From: an uncultured Chloroflexia bacterium
GTDB taxonomy: Bacteria; Chloroflexota; Anaerolineae; Caldilineales; Caldilineaceae
Direction of reading: 5' to 3'
DNA: 64,000 nt
Assembly: GCA_963765875.1 (NCBI GenBank)
Contig: CAVXYK010000029.1
Coordinates: 111,153-175,152, forward strand
This document shows, one piece after another, positions 1,026-48,373 of this stretch; the stretch's first letter is position 1, and each line of letters begins with the position of its first letter. The notes beneath the pieces were generated by a model. That model was given only the letters and a program-made list of their open reading frames with translations, did not search any database and was not told the origin of the DNA. A program made the position numbers and the translations under genes.

Positions 1026-1892
1026 CTACTTGGGCTCGACTGTCGGCGTCAGCGGCACGAAGACCTCAACATCCTGGCGTGGTACAGTGGTGATGGCCGT
1101 CGTCTCAATGGTCAGAAACCGATAGGCACCCAACAACATCACCGTCGTGAGAACGATCGCGATCGGCCAATAAACCAGGTTTCTTCGCCGCACAACGTTT
1201 TGCGGCGGCCGGACCACCTTGACGCCCTGTTCAATTTCTGCAAGTTCCAGTTGATGCTCTTCTTCCATGACATGACGATCGATGTATCCGTTGAACATGC
1301 TCTTGTTGAAGTGCTTGAGGTGAACGTTGTACAGATGCCAGGAGAGAATTGAGAGCGTCGCCAGTAAAGCCTCGGCGCTGTGTGCGGCCTTGGAGGCCGG
1401 AATGATCTGTCCAGGCAGATATTGGGTCACCAGAACCGGGTTCCAGAGCGCAAACCCGGTGATTATCATAATCACTGTTCCCCAGATCACGGCCCAATAC
1501 TCAACCTTCTCGCCAAACGTATAGCGACCCATTTGCGGCGCTTCAGACGTCAACCCAAGATTGTAGGTGACCGTGTGGCCGGTGTCTTTGGCATCCTTTG
1601 GGCTGGGCAGCATGGTCAGCGGCAAACGCAGGACAAAGACCTTGTAACTCACCCGACCCAGATGATAGATGGACTCAAAAACCAAGATCGCCGCGGCCAC
1701 ATGATGGATGATGCGTGTCGTCTCGATTCCGCCCATCAATTGAATCGCCCCGTTGCCAAGAAACGAATCGGCATAGCGTTGGGGGATGCCGGTGATCACC
1801 AGCGTCGTGAAGCTCATAATGAGCAGCCCATGTTCGATCCGTGACCAAGTGTTAAAGCGCCAATATCTGGAAGGCTTATTGCTGTTCGCCAT
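1026..1892 (-). CDS. Integral-membrane cytochrome b-type subunit (FdnI/PhsC/hydrogenase cytochrome b-like)
   Basis: ORF 1026..1916. The ATG at 1892 (MANSNKPSRYWRFNTWSRIEHGLLIMSFTTLVITG) overlaps the stop of the upstream cytochrome gene. Several TM helices carry conserved His. Family assigned from motif memory only. Confidence 0.6.
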   Translation of the reverse strand: MANSNKPSRYWRFNTWSRIEHGLLIMSFTTLVITGIPQRYADSFLGNGAIQLMGGIETTRIIHHVAAAILVFESIYHLGRVSYKVFVLRLPLTMLPSPKDAKDTGHTVTYNLGLTSEAPQMGRYTFGEKVEYWAVIWGTVIMIITGFALWNPVLVTQYLPGQIIPASKAAHSAEALLATLSILSWHLYNVHLKHFNKSMFNGYIDRHVMEEEHQLELAEIEQGVKVVRPPQNVVRRRNLVYWPIAIVLTTVMLLGAYRFLTIETTAITTVPRQDVEVFVPLTPTVEPK

Positions 1893-3006
1893 GATCCTCC
1901 TCTTTCTTACGCGCACGTCGTTCTTTGGACGTACGATAGATGTCGCTTCCGATCAACAGCGTGAAGAAGCCAATCGTGATCGGGATGACGATGGCATAGA
2001 ACAGGTCCACCAGGTAGACCAATGTATTGTTCTGCAACGACGGCTTAAAGTGGCTGGTCCATGCATCGGGGAAATTCGTACTCGCATCCGGATGGCACTG
2101 TTGGCAGGTGACAAGCAAGTTTTCGCGGATCACTTGAGAATTTTCATCGCTGGCCGGCAGGATGTTGTGCACGCCGTGACAATCGTAACAGACTGCCTTG
2201 TTGGTCTCCTGATCGGGCGACTGTCTTTCGAAGAGTTCAACGGTCGTGCCGTGGAAGTCGGCCACGTAGGTGTCGAACACATCGGTGGAGATGCCATATT
2301 TGCCCATCATTTCTTCGTCTGCATGGCATTCGGCACACATCTCCGGCGACTGAAGCCTAAACTGGGCCGTCGTTGGATCTTCGATGTGGTGCACGCCGTG
2401 GCAGTCGGTACAGACCGGCACATCCGGATTGTCCTGGCCCATCAACGCCGCTCCGTGGACGCTGTGAGCATACTGATCGTTGATGGTAGAGTGGCATTGG
2501 GAGCAGGTCTGGGAGACACGTTCGCGTGGCTCTGCCGGCATCTGAATATCGTGGTTACCATGACAGTCGAAACAGGTCGCGGCATCGGCTAGGCCGGATG
2601 CATAGGCCTCGGCATGGACGCCGTCACGTTCTGCTTCGTAGATATCGATGTGGCAGTCCCGACACATGCCCTCGTTTTCGAAGTGGTAGCTGCGCAGACC
2701 TGTTAATGTCCTCGTCGGGTGAGGAAACTCGTACTGCTCCACGTTGCTGTGGCAGTCTGTGCAGAGCAATTGGCTATGCTCGTACTGTTCAGTCAGATGG
2801 AAGCCATGAACCGAGTTTTCCAACGTTTCCAGATCGACATTGAGCGGCAACGTGTCGCCCGAAAGCATGGTGATCTCGCTGGTCAGCAGCGTATGGCAGT
2901 TCTTACACTGGGCATCGGCCGGATAGACATGGGTATCGGTATGGCACGTCTGGCAGGTCTGATCCGGGCCCAGATTCGCAACCAGTTCGGCGTGGGTCTC
3001 GGCCAC
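1876..3006 (-). CDS. Decaheme c-type cytochrome with C-terminal TM anchor (probably the distal part of a larger gene, see the in-frame TAG finding)
   Basis: Ten CxxCH motifs (CQTCH, CKNCH, CTDCH, CRDCH, CFDCH, CSQCH, CTDCH, CAECH, CYDCH, CQQCH). C-terminal hydrophobic helix VYLVDLFYAIVIPITIGFFTLLIG plus a basic tail. The track start is a GTG in the same frame as ORF 3061..3573. Confidence 0.8.
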   Translation of the reverse strand: MAETHAELVANLGPDQTCQTCHTDTHVYPADAQCKNCHTLLTSEITMLSGDTLPLNVDLETLENSVHGFHLTEQYEHSQLLCTDCHSNVEQYEFPHPTRTLTGLRSYHFENEGMCRDCHIDIYEAERDGVHAEAYASGLADAATCFDCHGNHDIQMPAEPRERVSQTCSQCHSTINDQYAHSVHGAALMGQDNPDVPVCTDCHGVHHIEDPTTAQFRLQSPEMCAECHADEEMMGKYGISTDVFDTYVADFHGTTVELFERQSPDQETNKAVCYDCHGVHNILPASDENSQVIRENLLVTCQQCHPDASTNFPDAWTSHFKPSLQNNTLVYLVDLFYAIVIPITIGFFTLLIGSDIYRTSKERRARKKEEDHGEQQ

Positions 3007-3060
3007 ACGCTCGTCCTCGTAGGTCTCATGGCAGCTTTGGCAGGTGCCGACTGGGTCGGC

Positions 3061-3573
3061 CTACATGGCGTCCACCGGCTCGGCTTCATGCCCACCGTGG
3101 CAGTCGGTGCAGGTGGGCAGGCCTTCCTTGTCCTCAGCCATCAGATGGCCGGGATTATGAACCTCGCTCGACTCATGGCAGCGCTGGCAATTCTGCGAAA
3201 CATCCGCGGAGAATTCTTGGAGCGTTTCGGCGGGATTGGGCTCATGGGGAAAGCGGTAGCGCTGGGCGCCGCGATGGCAGTCAGTGCAGTAGACGTCCTC
3301 AGCGCTGTGCATACCGTGGACGGACTGATCGAGCGCCATAAGATCTACGCCCAGCGGCATTTCTTCACCGCTAGGCAACGTCATCATGTCCGTTCTGTCA
3401 CCGTGACAGCCGATACAGGCACTGTCCGGCGGAGGTTGGGCAGCCAACACAACGGCCGGCTGCGAGAGTCCGAGTAGTCCGAAAATTGCGATGGCAAATA
3501 GGACTGACACCGTTGCTAGGAGTCGCACACCTAAAATTCGGGCGCGCCTTCGTTGATCCATTGTTCGATCCAT
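3061..3573 (-). CDS. Tetraheme c-type cytochrome segment with N-terminal signal anchor (probably the proximal part of the 1876..3573 gene)
   Basis: TM/signal helix LLATVSVLFAIAIFGLLGL. Motifs CIGCH, CTDCH, CQRCH, CTDCH. Ends at TAG 3061-3063, in the same frame as the downstream decaheme ORF. Confidence 0.75.
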   Translation of the reverse strand: MDRTMDQRRRARILGVRLLATVSVLFAIAIFGLLGLSQPAVVLAAQPPPDSACIGCHGDRTDMMTLPSGEEMPLGVDLMALDQSVHGMHSAEDVYCTDCHRGAQRYRFPHEPNPAETLQEFSADVSQNCQRCHESSEVHNPGHLMAEDKEGLPTCTDCHGGHEAEPVDAM

Positions 3574-5207
3574 TCTAGTTCACGAGGAGCGAGGCTATTG
3601 GGATGCCCCGCCTTCTGTAGTTCGACGAGAAGGCTCTCGTCAGCATTGCCGGGAATGATCGCAGGTCCGAAGTTGCCTCCGTCCATCATCCCTTCGTAAG
3701 TGTCGAGATAGAGGCCGGCTGTGCCGCCATGGCAGGCAACGCAACGCGCCTCGAGGATCGGGCCTACGAGGTCATTCCAGGTTAAATCCGATTCGGGATA
3801 GGTCGGCAACCGAGCGTCAAGCACGTTAGTCAGCTCAACAATACTCGGCGCATTGAAGCCGGCATAAGTCCATTCCGTCGCATGACATGAGCTGTTAGCG
3901 CAGAAGCTTGTATCGCTGATTCCGCCGGGATCGCTGACCGTATGACAACCCTCACATGTGTCATCAAACTCGAAGCGATGGATAGAGATCCAATTGCTGT
4001 CGATGTGCGATTCAGGCTCGAATGATTCCTGCAGGGTCAGGATCGGTGAAGAGCCGTCTTCCGGGCTCTTGACAGGAATCGAATGACAGATGTTGCACTC
4101 AATGCGAATGCTCTCGCCTTGCGGTGTGAGATGTTTGCCATCATGGCAACGGAAGCAGCCGGCTGACTCGCTGTGGCCCAAGTTGTCAGGATGAGATCCC
4201 CAACTTGGTTCCATGGTGGAATACATCATCTTCTGGTAGAGATTCAGCACTTCATCAATTCCGGCACTGAGCGTCTCCTGATTGGCTGCGGTGTAATCCG
4301 GATAGTGCACCTCGTAGTAGCCGTTGAGACCCAGAATGGCACGCTTGGCTTCGTCCATATTGGGGTAATCGCGTTCAAAGACGGCCAGGGCGTTCTGCTT
4401 GAAATAAGGAATCTCCGGTGAGATGACGCCACGCGCCATGGAGTCATCGATCGCTGCACTCGGTGTCGGGAACTGATGGGAGACCCGATTGTGACAGCTT
4501 GTGCAGTCCATCTGCTTGATATTGTCGGCATTCTGCTCGACGAAGTCTGCCGGCAGATCGGCGTCAACATCGATAAATTCCTCAGATTCGCCGGAATCGG
4601 CGTAGTTGACGCGCACCCAGGGAATCTCCTGCTGGAGATGTGGGTCATCGGTGGAAATGTATTCGATGTCATTCTCAATGTGCCAGTGGATTCCCTTGCC
4701 GCGGCCCTCGCGTACGCTGCCGCCACCGGTCTTGAAGGACATATACTGGAGCAACTCCTCATTGTTCTGTTCGGCATCGTAATGCTTGAACTCGCGCAAC
4801 GAATCCGCTGAGAATTTCTCAGGATTGTGGCACTTTTCGCACACTTCAGTGGCCGGTCGGAACGACTTGGTGTAGACGGGCAGATGGTAGCCGGCGCCCG
4901 CATACTTGAGTACGTGGGTAATCTCTTTTGACTTGCGTGTCAACTGGGTGGCGATTGTGGCGCGACCAATGTGGCACTCGACGCACTTGACGTTAGCATG
5001 AGGAGATTCCAGGAATGAGATATACTCGGCCGGCATGGTGTGGCAGGCGGTTCCACAAAACGCATTGCTGTTGGTATATTCCCAGCCCGCTCCCATTATC
5101 AAGAAGACCGTTATCCCCGCGAAAAGAAAGAACGCGTAGGGCATAATGCGAACCCACAGGGGTGACGTCCGTGCGGGGGAAAAAAACCTACCTATGCGTT
5201 CAAACAT
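3531..5207 (-). CDS. NapC/NirT-like membrane-anchored multiheme cytochrome with C-terminal PSCyt1-like cytochrome c domain
   Basis: N-terminal TM helix followed by FCGTACHTMP...CVECHIG (NapC/NirT-like arrangement). Seven canonical CxxCH motifs plus CGTACH and CANSSCH. The C-terminus CVACHGG...IIPGNADESLL...WIEQWINEGA resembles the planctomycete cytochrome c domain. Confidence 0.7.
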   Translation of the reverse strand: MFERIGRFFSPARTSPLWVRIMPYAFFLFAGITVFLIMGAGWEYTNSNAFCGTACHTMPAEYISFLESPHANVKCVECHIGRATIATQLTRKSKEITHVLKYAGAGYHLPVYTKSFRPATEVCEKCHNPEKFSADSLREFKHYDAEQNNEELLQYMSFKTGGGSVREGRGKGIHWHIENDIEYISTDDPHLQQEIPWVRVNYADSGESEEFIDVDADLPADFVEQNADNIKQMDCTSCHNRVSHQFPTPSAAIDDSMARGVISPEIPYFKQNALAVFERDYPNMDEAKRAILGLNGYYEVHYPDYTAANQETLSAGIDEVLNLYQKMMYSTMEPSWGSHPDNLGHSESAGCFRCHDGKHLTPQGESIRIECNICHSIPVKSPEDGSSPILTLQESFEPESHIDSNWISIHRFEFDDTCEGCHTVSDPGGISDTSFCANSSCHATEWTYAGFNAPSIVELTNVLDARLPTYPESDLTWNDLVGPILEARCVACHGGTAGLYLDTYEGMMDGGNFGPAIIPGNADESLLVELQKAGHPNSLAPRELEWIEQWINEGAPEF

Positions 5208-7134
5208 TGCTGCTTCTCCTGGAGCGCACGATGCGCACCACTGAAAAGATCAAAATCCCCAATCCGACCAGTCCCGATAGGGCGTAGAAGCCATAGCGTA
5301 GCCAGAGCCCGGGCGTTGCTACCGGCACATCTACAGGCTGTCCGACGGACGGCAATGGCGTCGGAATGGGCGGTGCGGTTGGGGTCGGTCCGGGACCAAA
5401 GAAAGAGTTGTTGCCTTCCTGTTGTATCACTGAATAATCGATGATTTCCATTGCCCATTGCGGACTCTCACCAAGATCTGTGTGACAGAGATTGCATGCG
5501 TTCGGCATGACCTCCACGCCACCATGGTCAATACTGCCTTGGGGATTCGGTTGCAGGAACGTATGGCTGTGGATATCGTAGTCTACTGCGCTGGTGGCCA
5601 TCTTGGGCATATGACAGTCAGTACAGGTGAAGTCATACTCGGCGCTGGCCACTTCATGATAGGGCATATGCGTGATCAGTGCGCTCTTGTCGCCGTGGCA
5701 GTCGACGCAGAGTTCGTTCACCGGAGCCTTCAGTTGGGCCCGGCCGACACCGCCACCATGGACGGCATGGCATGATGCGCAACTGGTTGTATCGTCCGCC
5801 TGCATGCTATTGCCCGACGTCCAATCCAGGAATTGCTGATTGTGCAGCTTGGCGCTGCCGTCGGGCCAGGAATCCGCCGGATCCGCGGTGAAGGTGAAAT
5901 GGTCGGTCAGTTGATCGCCAGGACGGAAGGTGGCCGGAAAGGGGAATCCGTCCGGAGACATGCCACGGCTATGGCAGGCGCCGCAGACCTGGTCATCGAT
6001 CTGGGCAAAGGGCTTGACATTTTCCGGGTCAGCCACGTGGTCAGTCGACGGACCATGACAGCTCTCACAGCCAATACCAAATTCAGTGAACTCCCAGCTC
6101 TCGGTATCTAACCCCGTGATGTGACAGGTACCGCACGACTCGCGCCAGTCCGTCTCGTCCCAGGTCTCGGGATGATAGCTCGCCCATTCCTCAGTCTCTG
6201 AGTGCCACTCTGCCGGCAACACGTAAAAGCCGCCTTCGCTCCCCGTGATCTGTGCAGCCGACGTGATGTCGGTCGTGGAAGTCAGCCCCACTGTCCCGGT
6301 GATGCCGGATGCTGAGGCGATGCCGGTCGTCACTGTGATAAAACGCTGCATCCACTCGCCGCCGATGGTATAGGCGACGTCGGTCAGTTCGATGGTGCGA
6401 TGCGGGTCGTCCAGCGTAAAATCGGCGACGATGGCATCCGGATTGATCTCTACATCCTGAATCGTGCCGGCGTGGAGCGTGTCGCGCCAACTCAGGTAGA
6501 TGTCCTCATGGCAACCGAGACAGCGTCTGCTGCCACTGAAGTCGACAGCCCCTTCTCCGTAGCCAACACGGCTGTCAAAAAACGATTGCGCCCAGCCATC
6601 GGCTTCATCGGTGTGGCAATCCACACAGCGTTCCGGCATGACATCGACCATCCCCTCAAACGGCTCGACCGCGTGGGCGGTGTGGCAGTCCACACAGGTC
6701 GGAGCGTCCGGACCAGCCTCCAGATCTCCGTGGAACGGGTTGTGCGCATAATGACACGATTCGCAGGTCTGAGACGCTGTCAATGTGTAGGCGCGGCGAT
6801 CAGTGGCTGTGGTCGGTTCGTGGGGAAATCGGTACTCGGTGTCGTTGGTGTGGCAATCGGAACAGGAGATCTCAGTCTCTGATGAGGAACTGTGAGATGA
6901 GACAGAATGTGCCGATTGATCCAACAAATCTAGTGGCACCAACAACGGGAGCGTCTCGCCGGAGGAGAGCGTGAGTTCCCGTTGGTTGTCACCGTGGCAG
7001 CCGCGGCAGGCCAAATCCGGTGGCGACTGCGCATGGCTAGCGCCACCGGTAACTAGACTGAACGCTCCTACCAGGCTCAGAAGGAGCAGCCAACGGACAG
7101 CCGGTATCCTTCTGAACTCGCTAATCCTTTTCAT
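5200..7134 (-). CDS. 13-heme c-type cytochrome with signal peptide and C-terminal TM anchor
   Basis: Thirteen CxxCH motifs, including CTDCHMPK. Start chosen at MKRISEFRRIPAVRWLLLLSLVGAFSLV (ATG 7134); ATGs at 7161 and 7194 are also possible. Pro-rich linker plus TM helix plus RSRR tail at the C-terminus. Confidence 0.75.
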   Translation of the reverse strand: MKRISEFRRIPAVRWLLLLSLVGAFSLVTGGASHAQSPPDLACRGCHGDNQRELTLSSGETLPLLVPLDLLDQSAHSVSSHSSSSETEISCSDCHTNDTEYRFPHEPTTATDRRAYTLTASQTCESCHYAHNPFHGDLEAGPDAPTCVDCHTAHAVEPFEGMVDVMPERCVDCHTDEADGWAQSFFDSRVGYGEGAVDFSGSRRCLGCHEDIYLSWRDTLHAGTIQDVEINPDAIVADFTLDDPHRTIELTDVAYTIGGEWMQRFITVTTGIASASGITGTVGLTSTTDITSAAQITGSEGGFYVLPAEWHSETEEWASYHPETWDETDWRESCGTCHITGLDTESWEFTEFGIGCESCHGPSTDHVADPENVKPFAQIDDQVCGACHSRGMSPDGFPFPATFRPGDQLTDHFTFTADPADSWPDGSAKLHNQQFLDWTSGNSMQADDTTSCASCHAVHGGGVGRAQLKAPVNELCVDCHGDKSALITHMPYHEVASAEYDFTCTDCHMPKMATSAVDYDIHSHTFLQPNPQGSIDHGGVEVMPNACNLCHTDLGESPQWAMEIIDYSVIQQEGNNSFFGPGPTPTAPPIPTPLPSVGQPVDVPVATPGLWLRYGFYALSGLVGLGILIFSVVRIVRSRRSSNV

Positions 7135-8368
7135 TTGCGCTGCCGGCCTGATCTCGATCATGGTAGCCGATGGCGATTTCCTGCAACTCTTCATCCGTCA
7201 GGTTGTCGGCACGACCATCATCCCGATGACAGTTGCGACAGGCAAAATCCAACGCCAGGTATGGCTGCGAGAAAGCGCCGTCCTTGTCGAACTGAGATGT
7301 GGCATGTGGGTTGATGGCCATCAGATGGGTGCGGAGATCGCCACTGAATTGCTCAGGATCGCCCACAGCGCTCTTGGTCACACGCGGCATGTGGCAATCC
7401 ACACACTTGGCATGTCTACGGTCGGTGATTTTCTGGTAGATCTTGTTCTCGAAATGACAGCTTTCGCAATCAGTCTTGATGCCCAATCCACCTGAGGCGT
7501 ATTTGACCGTCTCATGCGGATTGTGGCAGTCGATGCAGCGCATGACGCGCTTCTTGGACTCAAAGAGTTCTTCATACTGCTCGTGATGCTTGATGAAACC
7601 GCCGCTGGCGTCGATCTCGGTCACTTCGCCGCGGATGTGACATTGGCCACAAAGCTCCGAGTCCCGGTCGATGGTGGCCGGCACCTGATAGGGATCGTTG
7701 ACATGGTTACTGCCGGGACCGTGGCATTCCTCACAGCCGATGCCGTCCTCTGCCCAGGTGCCGATTAGGCCCGGCAACCCATCTTGGTTGCCTTCGGGAA
7801 TGTAGCCGGTGGTGTGGCAACTGCCACAATCATAGGGCTTCTCTTCACCGGCATGGTAGGGTACCCAATCATCGCCCATTTTGAGCGTCTTGTTCTCCAA
7901 GTTGTACTGGGTGGCGGCATTCTCGTCGCCGGTGATAATGTAGCCTTCCTGGTCGATAAAGCGGGCCTTCCAACCGTAGCCGCCGATGACGTATAGGATG
8001 TCATCCCACGTGTACCCCTCTGGCGGATCCGACACCTCGGAGAAGGGATATTCAGGTGGCTGGCCGTCAACAACCTTGTTGAGCTTATATGGGTGGCCGG
8101 TCTCCCGATAGGTCGCGTAGAGATCTTCGTGGCATTCCTGACAGTTCTCTGAACCGACGTAGGTAGCAGGAGCCCAGTTCAGCCCATCTTCGCCGACAGG
8201 ACCGGCAGGACCTGCAAGACCTTGCGGACCAGGTGGTCCTGCTTCACCCTGGGGACCGGGCGCACCAGCAGGACCCATAGGACCTGCTTCTGGAGTCTGC
8301 AACTGGCAGCCGCCGCCCATGACCGCTACCATCAGTAGAACAGCCAGCAAAGCTACCGTACGTCGCAT
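7121..8368 (-). CDS. Octaheme c-type cytochrome lipoprotein with N-terminal collagen-like (G-X-Y)11 segment
   Basis: ATG 8368 is preceded by GGGAGGG. Signal plus lipobox MRRTVALLAVLLMVAVMGGGC. GPMGPAGAPGPQGEAGPPGPQGLAGPAGPVGEDG. Eight CxxCH motifs (CQECH, CGSCH, CEECH, CGQCH, CIDCH, CESCH, CVDCH, CRNCH). The track ORF start at 8521 lies in AT-rich leader and is unlikely. Confidence 0.8.
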   Translation of the reverse strand: MRRTVALLAVLLMVAVMGGGCQLQTPEAGPMGPAGAPGPQGEAGPPGPQGLAGPAGPVGEDGLNWAPATYVGSENCQECHEDLYATYRETGHPYKLNKVVDGQPPEYPFSEVSDPPEGYTWDDILYVIGGYGWKARFIDQEGYIITGDENAATQYNLENKTLKMGDDWVPYHAGEEKPYDCGSCHTTGYIPEGNQDGLPGLIGTWAEDGIGCEECHGPGSNHVNDPYQVPATIDRDSELCGQCHIRGEVTEIDASGGFIKHHEQYEELFESKKRVMRCIDCHNPHETVKYASGGLGIKTDCESCHFENKIYQKITDRRHAKCVDCHMPRVTKSAVGDPEQFSGDLRTHLMAINPHATSQFDKDGAFSQPYLALDFACRNCHRDDGRADNLTDEELQEIAIGYHDRDQAGSANEKD

Positions 8369-8662
8369 GTTACCCTCCCGAAAAGAGAATTCGCAAAGAT
8401 GCCTTGTGAAAAAAATAACATTAGTTTGCGTCCAAAAAAAGAAAGAAAAATCTAAAGATCGGTCGGTTACCCTGGATAGGGCAGACAATTCGTGATTTGC
8501 GGTGGGAGAATAATGTGGCATTGATTACAATGTCTGTCTATGATATCCTAACAACAAAATGAAAGCAAGTCCGTTTTGTTCTCCGTTTCAATTCCTGACA
8601 ACAGCAGACAACCCGAATATTTTATCAATTGTTGGCCATTTCGTACCCAGTGGAGGTGACCC

Positions 8663-10415: not shown

Positions 10416-11797
10416 CTATTCAAAATAGACATCATCCTCTTCAAGCGCCCTGCGCAGATCCGCATAGGGCAAGGCCCGAATGTCGCAATCCGCAGCCGGC
10501 AGAGAGCGCGGCAGCCGTGCCCGCGGCCTGCCCCATGCCCATGCAGGAGACCGTGTTGCGCGTCGACATGTGCGCGTCGTGATCGGCCGTGATCATCATG
10601 CCGGTGGCGAAAAGGTTGTCCACGCCGGCAACACAGAGCGCCCGATAGGGGATGCCATAGGTGCCGCCGTCCTTGATCTGGAAGCGCGGCGCCATGTCGT
10701 GAAAGCCGTAGGCGAAGACGTCGTCCTCAAAGTGCCGGCCTTCCAGCACGTCCTCACGGGTGATGTCGTAGTCGCAGGTGATGAGCCGCCCACGCCGGGG
10801 ATTGATGTGCGGGCTGGTGCGCGGCGATGAAGGCCTTTTCGCAGCCGGGCACGAATTTGCGGAAGAGTTCGATGGCCGCAACTTGGCGTCGCCGCAGTTC
10901 CAACTCTGCCTCGGCTGTGGCGTCACGATCCGTGGGGCTGACCTTCATCTTGTAGTTGAGCTTGATGAACATGAAGTAGTCGTCGTGCACGGTCGTGGTC
11001 ACGGTGGCCATGCCGATGCGCCGGGCCTCTTCCATGAACTCGGTGGGCAGATTCTTACTGATGCCCATGAGGCGCACGATCTGGTCTTCCTTGCCGCTGC
11101 GCCAGCCCTCGGAATACTCCTTGACCGCATCGTTCTCTTTGAGAAATTCGTAGTACTTCTCAACATCAACGCCGCCTACGCCGATGCTGTTGGCCACCGG
11201 ATAGTCGTTGGGCTCGGAGAAATCGGCCCCGGCATAGGCGCAGAGCTCGCCGAGGCCGGTGCAGTCCACGAACGTGTGAGCGAAGATGGCCTCACGCCCG
11301 GATCGGCTCTCTGCGATGACGCCGGTGATGCGTGAGCCGTCCATGATGGCGCCGGTCAGCAACGTGTTGACGCAGACGGTCACGCCCGCCTCCACCAGCA
11401 TCTCGAAGGTGACGAGCTTGTAGATCTCGGTGTCGATGGCCGTGCAGATCGAGTCGTAGTCGTAACCTTCGGTCATCTCGGCGTGGCCCGACGTGCCGCC
11501 GGCCTCGGCCAGCCGATCGACGATCTCCTGTGGGATGCCCTTGACCACCTGGCGCTTTTCGACGCCGGGGAAGGCCTTCCACAGATTGTAATAACTGTGC
11601 AGCGCCGTTCCACCCTCGACCACCGTGCCGCCGGGATAGCCCTTGGCCTCGATAAGCACCGTGTTGGCCCCACGTCGTGCCGCGGCCAGCGCTGCTACGA
11701 CACCGCCTGTTCCTCCGCCGGCGACGACGACGTCAAAGGTACGGGCGGGTAGTTCTCTACTCGGTTCTTGATAGCGGTGCATAATGATTCCCTTCAT
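10416..11797 (-). CDS. FAD-dependent oxidoreductase (FAD_oxidored family-like), two apparent frameshifts
   Basis: N-terminal dinucleotide fold FDVVVAGGGTGGVVAALAAARRGA (ORF 10754..11797). The C-terminal part continues in ORF 10441..10926 (ITCDYDITREDVLEGRHFEDDVFAYGFHD...). A third frame near 10495 gives the plausible end ADCDIRALPYADLRRALEEDDVYFE*, stop at 10416-10418. Confidence 0.7.
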
Positions 11798-19856: not shown

Positions 19857-19877
19857 AGCGAGGGGCGTTTCAGCTCT

Positions 19878-21253
19878 GTTTCAATCCACGCCCCCCGTGA
19901 GGGGGGCGACGTGGTGGCTAGACTCAGGATGTCTAATCCAAAAATGTTTCAATCCACGCCCCCCGTGGGGGGGCGACGCGATTGCCTGCACGTTATGGCC
20001 ACAATGCGAGCCGTTTCAATCCACGCCCCCCGTGAGGGGGGCGACCTTTATCGGCATCGAACTGGATGAGCAACTACACGGTTTCAATCCACGCCCCCGC
20101 GTGAGGGGGCGACGGCACGTTCGGAATTGGTCGACGTGGCCGAAGCCGTTTCAATCCACGCCCCCCGTGGGGGGCGACCAACAGCGCCGAGCCGGGCGGC
20201 GAATCCCGGCAGTTTCAATCCACGCCCCCCGTGAGGGGGCGACTGCTTCTGATCATTGGCCGCAGGCGATGCGAAGAGTTTCAATCCACGCCCCCCGTGG
20301 GGGGGCGACGTGATGACTTGGAGGATAATATGAGCGACGATCTGTTTCAATCCACGCCCCCGTGTGGGGGGCGACTTGCTTCTGATCATCGGCCGCAGGC
20401 GATGCGAAGAGTTTCAATCCACGCCCCCCGTGAGGGGGGCGACGTGGAACGCACCCTCTCCGGTCAGAACTATGCAAGTTTCAATCCACGCCCCCCGCGT
20501 GGGGGCGACCGGTGCCGTTCGTGTTGGCTATGACCATCAGCTATGTTTCAATCCACGCCCCCCGTGGGGGGGCGACCAGACGTGCAGTTTGATGAGCAAA
20601 TGTATCAGAGGCATGTTTCAATCCACGCCCCCGTGAGGGGGCGACTCGGATTGGTTGCCGTGGTCGACCGTGTGCTGGAGTTTCAATCCACGCCCCCCGT
20701 GAGGAGGGCGACATGATATTGCTATGTCCGTTGCCCGCCGTACAAAAGTTTCAATCCACGCCCCCCGTGAGGGGGGCGACGTGGGCGAAGGCTGTCGGCA
20801 TGAGCGCGATTGAGGTTGTTTCAATCCACGCCCCCCGTGAGGGGGCGACGGGATACGTTCAAAGCACTAGCAAGCAACTATATTGTTTCAATCCACGCCC
20901 CCCGTGAGGGGGGCGACGAGGTTGCAATTCTACAGAAACAAATAGCAGCACTGTTTCAATCCACGCCCCCCGTGAGGGGGGCGACCGCACTAAGCGGGAC
21001 AGCTGCACCTGACTGAGCAAGTTTCAATCCACGCCCCCCGTGAGGGGGCGACATTAAATCCACTTGGTCCATAGCACGATGCAACGTTTCAATCCACGCC
21101 CCCCGTGAGGGGGGCGACATAATGATTTTTCAAAATCGGCTCTTTGATTAGTGTTTCAATCCACGCCCCCCGTGAGGGGGGCGACGGCGTACGTTCAAGG
21201 CGAGTATGCATCTGAGGCCGGTTTCAATCCACGCCCCCCGTGAAGGGGGCGAC
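19878..21253 (-). CRISPR. Type I-C CRISPR array, 21 repeats / 20 spacers, transcribed on the minus strand
   Basis: Plus-strand repeat GTTTCAATCCACGCCCCCCGTGAGGGGGGCGAC. The reverse complement ends ...GTGGATTGAAAC, as in I-C repeats. Spacers are 33-38 nt. Repeat copies are 31-33 nt and differ mainly in C/G-run length. cas2 and the leader lie on the 21254 side. Confidence 0.95.
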
Positions 21254-21426
21254 CGCAACATTTAGGTGACAAACACATGCCGACCCCCTAAATATTGATT
21301 CTGCTATTTCAATTGTACCTCAACACTTGCCTTGAATGCCCTGGAATCGCGGTTGGTAGGCGCCGAAAAGGCTGCGAACCTGTAGGACAGAAACATGGTC
21401 ACTTCCAGTTCGCAATCGTCATGATT
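21254..21426 (-). promoter_or_regulatory. Putative CRISPR leader
   Basis: Non-coding, lower-GC stretch between the corrected cas2 stop (21427-21429) and the first repeat. Position is the only evidence. Confidence 0.45.
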
Positions 21427-48045: not shown

Positions 48046-48132
48046 TGTTGAGCTCCTGGGTGTCTCGACCTACAAACATCGAATTTCAGCAGTTCACGAA
48101 TTCAAGCAAAACAAGATTCGGCTCTTTGAGCT

Positions 48133-48233
48133 ATTGTGGGGACATATGGAAACCCGACCTCCGGGAGGTGTCCAGGAAATCTCTGCCCCGACGGCCATTT
48201 TGTGGACACCTCCCGGAGGTCTCGCCCCACAAT
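48133..48233. repeat. Long-hairpin repeat family 'ACCTCCGGGAGGT', copy 2
   Basis: ATTGTGGGG...ACCCGACCTCCGGGAGGTGTCC ... GGACACCTCCCGGAGGTCTCGCCCCACAAT. Confidence 0.8.
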
Positions 48234-48373
48234 TCCTCACAGAGCCCAAGATTCTTCGCTGGTCATTTTCCAGAGCAAAGTAGTTCGGCAGACCTACTCA
48301 GAATGACAATTCGTGAAGTACTATATTTCGCAATAGTGATGCGTCGCAGCCGGACATCGGCTATCACCGGCGA

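Follow-up and report, generated by a model that had tools for sequence, protein, structure and literature searches.

The window, a stretch of 64,000 nt of contig CAVXYK010000029.1 from an uncultured Chloroflexota bacterium of the Caldilineaceae, carries on its minus strand at 1876-3561 a gene for a c-type cytochrome with 15 heme-binding motifs, which is interrupted by a single in-frame TAG codon and appears as two open reading frames (ORFs). Comparison with full-length orthologues fully supports the reading of 1876-3561 as one gene, and not as a chance juxtaposition. The TAG would be a simple nonsense codon, made from CAG or TTG by the change of one base in a variable loop, without special decoding. 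As to its source, we lean towards a consensus base error of an error-prone, long-read-type metagenome assembly, with the gene probably intact, and give a lower probability to a genuine and very recent mutation.

One gene across the in-frame TAG

The minus-strand ORFs 3573..3061 and 3006..1876 share a common frame and are parted by the TAG (3063-3061) and 18 codons reading ADPVGTCQSCHETYEDER, as the initial annotation had described. Read through, the junction translates as ...HEAEPVDAM-TAG-ADPVGTCQSCHETYEDER-VAETHAELV..., with the TAG as the sole interruption. The joined product comprises 565 residues from the ATG at 3573, and 561 from the conserved start at ATG 3561, where the proteins of relatives begin (MDQRRRAR); the in-frame ATG 3573 further upstream is not used by the relatives. 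Exactly 15 CxxCH motifs are present in the joined product, the fifth of which (CQSCH, 3042-3028) lies inside the 18 'intergenic' codons. The hydropathy profile includes one N-terminal hydrophobic signal or anchor segment (residues 7-41) and one C-terminal transmembrane (TM) helix (residues 514-540), the N-terminal segment (3439..3561) being the sole export signal of the whole protein. Pfam matches were all over the cut-off, i.e. Cytochrome_C7 PF14522 with 67.5 bits (cut-off 24.8), Paired_CXXCH_1 PF09699 with 64.8 bits (20.6), and Cytochrom_c3_2 PF14537 with 64.6 bits (25). By its 15 CxxCH motifs, profile matches and N-terminal export signal, the whole gene qualifies as that of a multiheme c-type cytochrome. 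The named NCBIfam decaheme and NrfB families matched the product weakly, and a PDB sequence search with the joined protein returned nothing at E ≤ 0.01. There is one copy of the gene in its genome.

Queried with the joined sequence, the protein collection gave a list of 120 homologues at E ≤ 1e-198, nearly all of them 500-600 amino acids (aa) long, with lengths near 545-565 aa for more than 100, and with about 90-100% query coverage. In the alignment of the window product with 24 orthologues (25 sequences), all 24 orthologues were continuous across the junction as a single protein. All 15 CxxCH motifs were invariant, and the motif in the gap (C178/C181/H182, CQSCH) was kept in 25/25 sequences. 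Neither a split at this site nor an own start and signal peptide for the distal part was found in any orthologue examined, and an internal stop was present in none of the related genomes that carry the gene (16/41). The proposal of the initial annotation, a single gene for 15 hemes in about 565 codons, is thereby borne out.

The residue at the position of the stop differed among orthologues. Within the same 90% cluster it was Q (P0002, P0124, P0125), E (P0126) or L (P0128, P0129, P0130), and in the more distant orthologues A, N, T, V or Y. Consulting the orthologues for the codon at the site, as the initial annotation had suggested, gave sense codons (CAG in the 91%-identical relative L001, TTG in the same-genus genome G001) and no separate distal gene. 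Either codon becomes TAG by one substitution, and the position is, judged from these alignments, free to vary.

Consensus error or recent mutation

Downstream of the stop, the ratio of nonsynonymous to synonymous substitution (dN/dS) was 0.063 in comparison with L001 and 0.049 with G001, and upstream it was higher (0.14 and 0.12, respectively). No second stop or frameshift followed the TAG in the joined frame, and the window product had no private changes at positions invariant among the 24 other orthologues. Relaxed constraint and further lesions, as expected of an established pseudogene, were not observed. In the absence of decay downstream, the lesion is by these comparisons either very young or not biological.

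Under the error reading towards which we lean, the stop would not be biological, the consensus base would be wrong and the real gene would be intact. For this base we infer it from the combination of one gene, a difference of one base, no decoding machinery (see below), a constrained downstream part, and single-base errors elsewhere in the assembly. The type I-C array of clustered regularly interspaced short palindromic repeats (CRISPR) at 19877-21261 was used as an internal gauge of consensus error. Here 12/21 repeats deviate from the consensus GTTTCAATCCACGCCCCCCGTGAGGGGGGCGAC, mostly in the length of C/G runs, with G-to-A and A-to-T changes occurring as well. At least two of the deviations are pure plus-strand G-to-A substitutions, which is the same change as CTG to CTA at 3063. 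In four-way and three-way alignments with L001, G001 and G002, window-private 1-bp insertions were located in conserved genes at 14, 283, 10487, 10824, 13580 and 16150, amounting to about six per 14 kb. In the sister assemblies L017 (G001:C14), L019 (G002:C20) and L001, the same operon is shredded by 1-bp insertions, with 2-3 frames per gene.

The private insertions near 283 and 14 break a multiheme cytochrome gene at 9-732 on the minus strand, downstream of the cytochrome b gene. They read GAGTCGAAGCG versus GAGTC-AGGCG of the relatives, and GACGTCAGCTG versus GACGTT-GCCG, and both are absent from three relatives. The insertions at 10487, 10824, 13580 and 16150 are in genes conserved in G001 and G002, and two of them lie in or create GATC/CGAT contexts (CCGATCTGG, ATCGATTTC), a possible sign of a systematic basecalling error, perhaps linked to methylation. 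The G002 operon contains about 15 1-bp insertions in 7 kb and, among the contexts inspected, many of the inserted bases follow GA.

Truncated products, including the exact one of 166 aa, are recorded from a single contig, which is the window's own. The precise 30 nt surrounding the stop, with the first base of the codon left free (N), had no match in the metagenome or genome contigs, and a protein-seeded scan of the metagenome contigs for the same species returned relatives at ≤ 64% identity only, in collections from which records of the genome itself may be missing.

Some properties of the lesion and its surroundings weigh against an assembly error. The verified errors of the assembly are mostly 1-bp indels, whereas this lesion is a substitution, and the site is outside any homopolymer. 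In the window no frame break occurs in the five operon genes at 1026-8521, against many in the assemblies of the relatives, and the local consensus thus looks comparatively good. Moreover, in 47,060 aligned residues of G001 ORFs compared with the genome (at ≥ 85% identity), no clean mid-gene stop other than this TAG was seen. Stops that arise by substitution are therefore rare, which fits a rare error and a rare mutation equally. The other hits of the refined in-frame-stop census were in 5′ leaders, alignment ends, frameshifted stretches, and the block C3:113.7-114.1 kb, taken as rRNA.

The indel character of the verified errors and the good-looking consensus of an operon otherwise free of frame errors speak at the same time for a real amber mutation of very recent date, from CAG to TAG, in the population sampled, an explanation that we hold to be the less probable one, while still according it considerable weight. 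It is what the sequence states as deposited, C-to-T transitions are the commonest spontaneous mutations, and the operon is dispensable in the wider group, judging from the presence of the gene in 16/41 related genomes. Such a mutation would have to be very young, because no second lesion and no relaxed constraint (dN/dS 0.05-0.06) accompany it, and it would need to have become predominant in a natural population, in a gene that has one copy and lies in the middle of an otherwise intact and conserved operon. The allele is, besides, known from one contig only.

The consequences differ between the two. An error would concern the annotation only: the two ORFs should be merged into a cytochrome of 561 aa and the assembly flagged for polishing. 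If the stop is real, only the first 166 residues would be translated, as an exported fragment with 4 hemes, with 394 codons, 11 hemes and the anchor lost, and any product from GTG 3006, having no signal peptide, could neither leave the cytoplasm nor acquire heme. The gene would then be newly inactivated, a null or pseudogene, the cytochrome b partner would be left without its c-type subunit and the module would be disabled. For one Caldilineaceae-type population this would be the recent loss, by ordinary pseudogenisation, of the c-type subunit in one of the two quinol-oxidising modules of an operon for multiheme, probably extracellular, electron transfer.

Possible decoding of the UAG or split into two genes

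Both halves of the gene are perfectly conserved and in frame, and, given the variety of residues accepted at the site, it would not matter which amino acid was inserted. These features would suit a UAG that is decoded to make the full-length protein, be it by pyrrolysine, an amber suppressor, programmed read-through, or leaky termination without release factor 1 (RF1); on the evidence below, decoding in any of these forms is nevertheless very unlikely. Among the 49 tRNAs identified by ARAGORN in the whole genome assembly (6.55 Mb, 29 contigs, 93.9% complete), none had the anticodon CUA and none was a tRNA-Pyl. The best match in the genome to PylS (TIGR02367) reached 16.9 bits in reference to a cut-off of 178, with a positive Methanosarcina control, and that to PylD (TIGR03911) 18.9 bits in reference to a cut-off of 150; pylB and pylC were not searched separately. 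The search for a suppressor tRNA or pyl genes, proposed in the initial annotation, hence found neither a CUA tRNA nor pylS or pylD. A tRNA-Sec (UCA) was located at 78179-78278 of one contig and is irrelevant to UAG. From its presence the organism probably produces selenoproteins, and neighbouring multiheme proteins gave weak NCBIfam matches to '(seleno)protein' cytochrome families.

TAG terminates 39% of the open frames of ≥ 300 codons in the genome. The terminator test was made against a 264-kb contig of the same-genus G001, chosen to avoid circularity, with long frames aligning to the C-terminus. The TAG-ended frames ended at the same residue in G001 in 45/51 cases (31 TAG, 11 TAA, 3 TGA), which is comparable to the TGA-ended (37/41) and TAA-ended (28/29) frames. 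The neighbouring NrfH/NapC-like gene, with TAG at 3531-3533, provides a local example of TAG as a true stop, since its product of 558 aa matches the L001 orthologue in its end. According to these comparisons, TAG is a conserved genuine terminator in this genome.

No stop was present at the site in about 32 aligned orthologues, and the rarity of clean in-frame stops, one per 47,060 residues, likewise argues against decoding. No stimulatory, PYLIS- or SECIS-like structure (pyrrolysine and selenocysteine insertion sequences, respectively) was detected in the 126 nt from the stop, where the minimum free energy was -40.9 and the mean of the shuffles -40.9 (z = 0.01). The fourth base, i.e. the one after the TAG, is G, which according to knowledge from Escherichia coli is not a weak context. 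A count of same-frame ORF pairs over the whole genome was uninformative, the 1,339 pairs being mostly adjacent genes.

The assembly was found to contain the gene for RF2 only, a point in favour of leaky termination. The profile search for prfA (RF1) returned solely the RF2 locus at C6:646590-647603, with 242 bits for prfA and 471 bits for prfB (over cut-off), and tblastn with the RF1 of G001 detected nothing in the genome beyond the RF2 gene. RF1 is present in the relatives, and the prfA of G001 is located on a contig of 10.7 kb (C27). This contig has no counterpart in the genome, save short dispersed repeats and the cross-match of prfA to the RF2 gene. On account of the missing counterpart, the completeness of 93.9% and the conserved use of TAG as terminator, the absence of RF1 is most likely a gap of assembly or binning and not a loss. 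A true loss of RF1, with the leaky UAG read by a near-cognate tRNA (e.g. tRNA-Gln CUG) to give a working 15-heme cytochrome, is the remotest of all the cases considered here.

A dispersed element of about 100-140 nt was recognized at 48115-48256 of the window (C29:159267-159408) and in more than ten other places of G000, often as inverted pairs, and it matches G001:C27:825-960. Its copies are on C3, C4, C6, C7, C9, C10, C11, C12, C13, C25 and C29.

To the extent that sequence analysis allows, pyrrolysine, a suppressor tRNA, codon reassignment and structured read-through can be ruled out. The programmed read-through that the initial annotation had listed among its options is likewise effectively excluded by the lack of a CUA tRNA, PylS and PylD, the conserved TAG terminators, the orthologues without a stop, and the lack of RNA structure. 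The useful outcome is thus a negative one: an ordinary nonsense codon, with nothing new in coding and no case of pyrrolysine, suppression or read-through.

Two genuine genes, one for a soluble 4-heme cytochrome and one for a separately started, anchored 10-heme cytochrome, would be in line with the two products annotated by gene callers and with GAGGA (3018-3014), a Shine-Dalgarno-like motif 7 nt before GTG 3006. To that extent the initial annotation, which saw no plausible ribosome-binding site in the gap, has to be corrected. Its conclusion holds, as the GAGGA encodes part of the conserved YEDE and the GAGGA-N7-GTG arrangement also occurs inside the uninterrupted L001 gene, and the motif therefore does not speak for an independent start. 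The downstream piece from GTG 3006, beginning MAETHAELVANLGPDQ, has no hydrophobic leader and no signal peptide, in agreement with the initial annotation, and without one the distal product cannot reach the heme-attachment machinery. With heme motif 5, invariant in 25/25 sequences, left untranslated, with no orthologue divided here, and with the same arrangement in the intact L001 gene, a natural two-gene split was rejected; its probability is minute, below that of decoding taken as a whole.

Operon, proposed function and known systems

The features of the cytochrome gene and of its operon are collected in Table 1. At its end the cytochrome c gene shares 17 nt with the start (ATG) of the cytochrome b gene, and the gene order is kept in L001. 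The cytochrome b protein additionally gave weak NCBIfam matches to formate-dehydrogenase gamma.

Table 1. Location of the interrupted cytochrome gene, its parts, and neighbouring genes in the window.
Feature	Position	Strand	Remarks
15-heme c-type cytochrome gene, complete	1876..3561	-	561 codons including the in-frame TAG, then TAA 1878-1876
In-frame TAG	3061..3063	-	plus strand CTA; critical base A at 3063 or T at 3062
Signal peptide or signal anchor (predicted)	3439..3561	-	RRRAR, hydrophobic core, VLA/AQ; from hydropathy and aligned orthologue N-termini
Fragment before the stop	3064..3561	-	166 aa, signal peptide and hemes 1-4
18 'intergenic' codons ADPVGTCQSCHETYEDER	3007..3060	-	heme motif 5 (CQSCH, 3028-3042) and GAGGA (3014-3018)
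Annotated downstream fragment, internal GTG 3006	1876..3006	-	376 aa, hemes 6-15, C-terminal anchor
C-terminal TM helix LVYLVDLFYAIVIPITIGFFTLLIGSD (predicted)	1942..2022	-	followed by basic cytoplasmic tail; from hydropathy; kept in all aligned orthologues
Partner cytochrome b gene, FdnI/HydC-type, 288 aa	1026..1892	-	PF01292, 36.6 bits (cut-off 30.1)
NrfH/NapC-like multiheme cytochrome gene, 558 aa	3531..5207	-	upstream neighbour; ends in TAG
664-aa multiheme protein	5200-7194		operon member
Collagen-stalked multiheme protein	7121-8521		operon member

The 15-heme c-type cytochrome would be exported, held at the membrane by its C-terminal helix, and paired with the cytochrome b subunit. The cytochrome c/b pair would form a CbcL-like module for electron transfer from quinol to multiheme proteins, in an operon of the Caldilineaceae-type Chloroflexota. 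With its further multiheme proteins, the operon would suit an electron-transfer chain at the cell surface or outside the cell, of a type put forward for Ardenticatena maritima, an iron-reducing member of the Chloroflexota (PMC5808234).

The UAG of pyrrolysine systems (Methanosarcina mtmB-type, Desulfitobacterium) resembles the window case only in being an in-frame UAG in a conserved gene. The window genome differs in lacking pylS, pylD and tRNA-Pyl and in using UAG abundantly as a true stop, and the site is variable and not shared by the orthologues. Closer to hand are the consensus errors of long-read metagenome-assembled genomes, which likewise appear as a single-base lesion in a constrained gene, together with length variation in CRISPR repeats and homopolymers and private insertions. 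The errors documented in this assembly are mostly indels, and the lesion in the cytochrome gene, a substitution outside a homopolymer, belongs to a less typical class.

Proteins annotated as 'cytochrome c3 family protein' in Caldilineaceae or Caldilinea (P0024, P0038, P0099, P0105) are orthologues with 54-61% identity over 88-99% of the length. They have the same 15 CxxCH motifs, signal peptide and C-terminal helix, and are uninterrupted, with Ala, Gln or a similar residue where the window has TAG.

CbcL of Geobacter sulfurreducens is an inner-membrane bc-type quinol oxidoreductase, in which a six-helix di-heme b cytochrome is fused to a nine-heme periplasmic domain, and it takes electrons of the quinol pool in the direction of acceptors outside the cell (PMC9129911). 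CbcL and the window pair are alike in joining a b cytochrome of the FdnI/HydC type (PF01292) with an extracytoplasmic multiheme c part, among genes for multiheme cytochromes. An 819-aa protein in NCBI (P0080, from a 3.8-kb contig) has c-type domains and PF01292 in one polypeptide, and is a candidate CbcL-like fusion of the window pair. CbcL itself, which has a role in low-potential extracellular respiration, is one chain that carries nine c-hemes and six TM helices, from a host of the Desulfuromonadales, whereas the window, of a probably monoderm Chloroflexota host, has two genes overlapping by 17 nt, 15 hemes and an own C-terminal anchor. As the number of hemes and the gene organisation differ, membership is not claimed; on the grounds of architectural likeness, CbcL is the functionally closest described system, and the cytochrome pair of the window may work like it.

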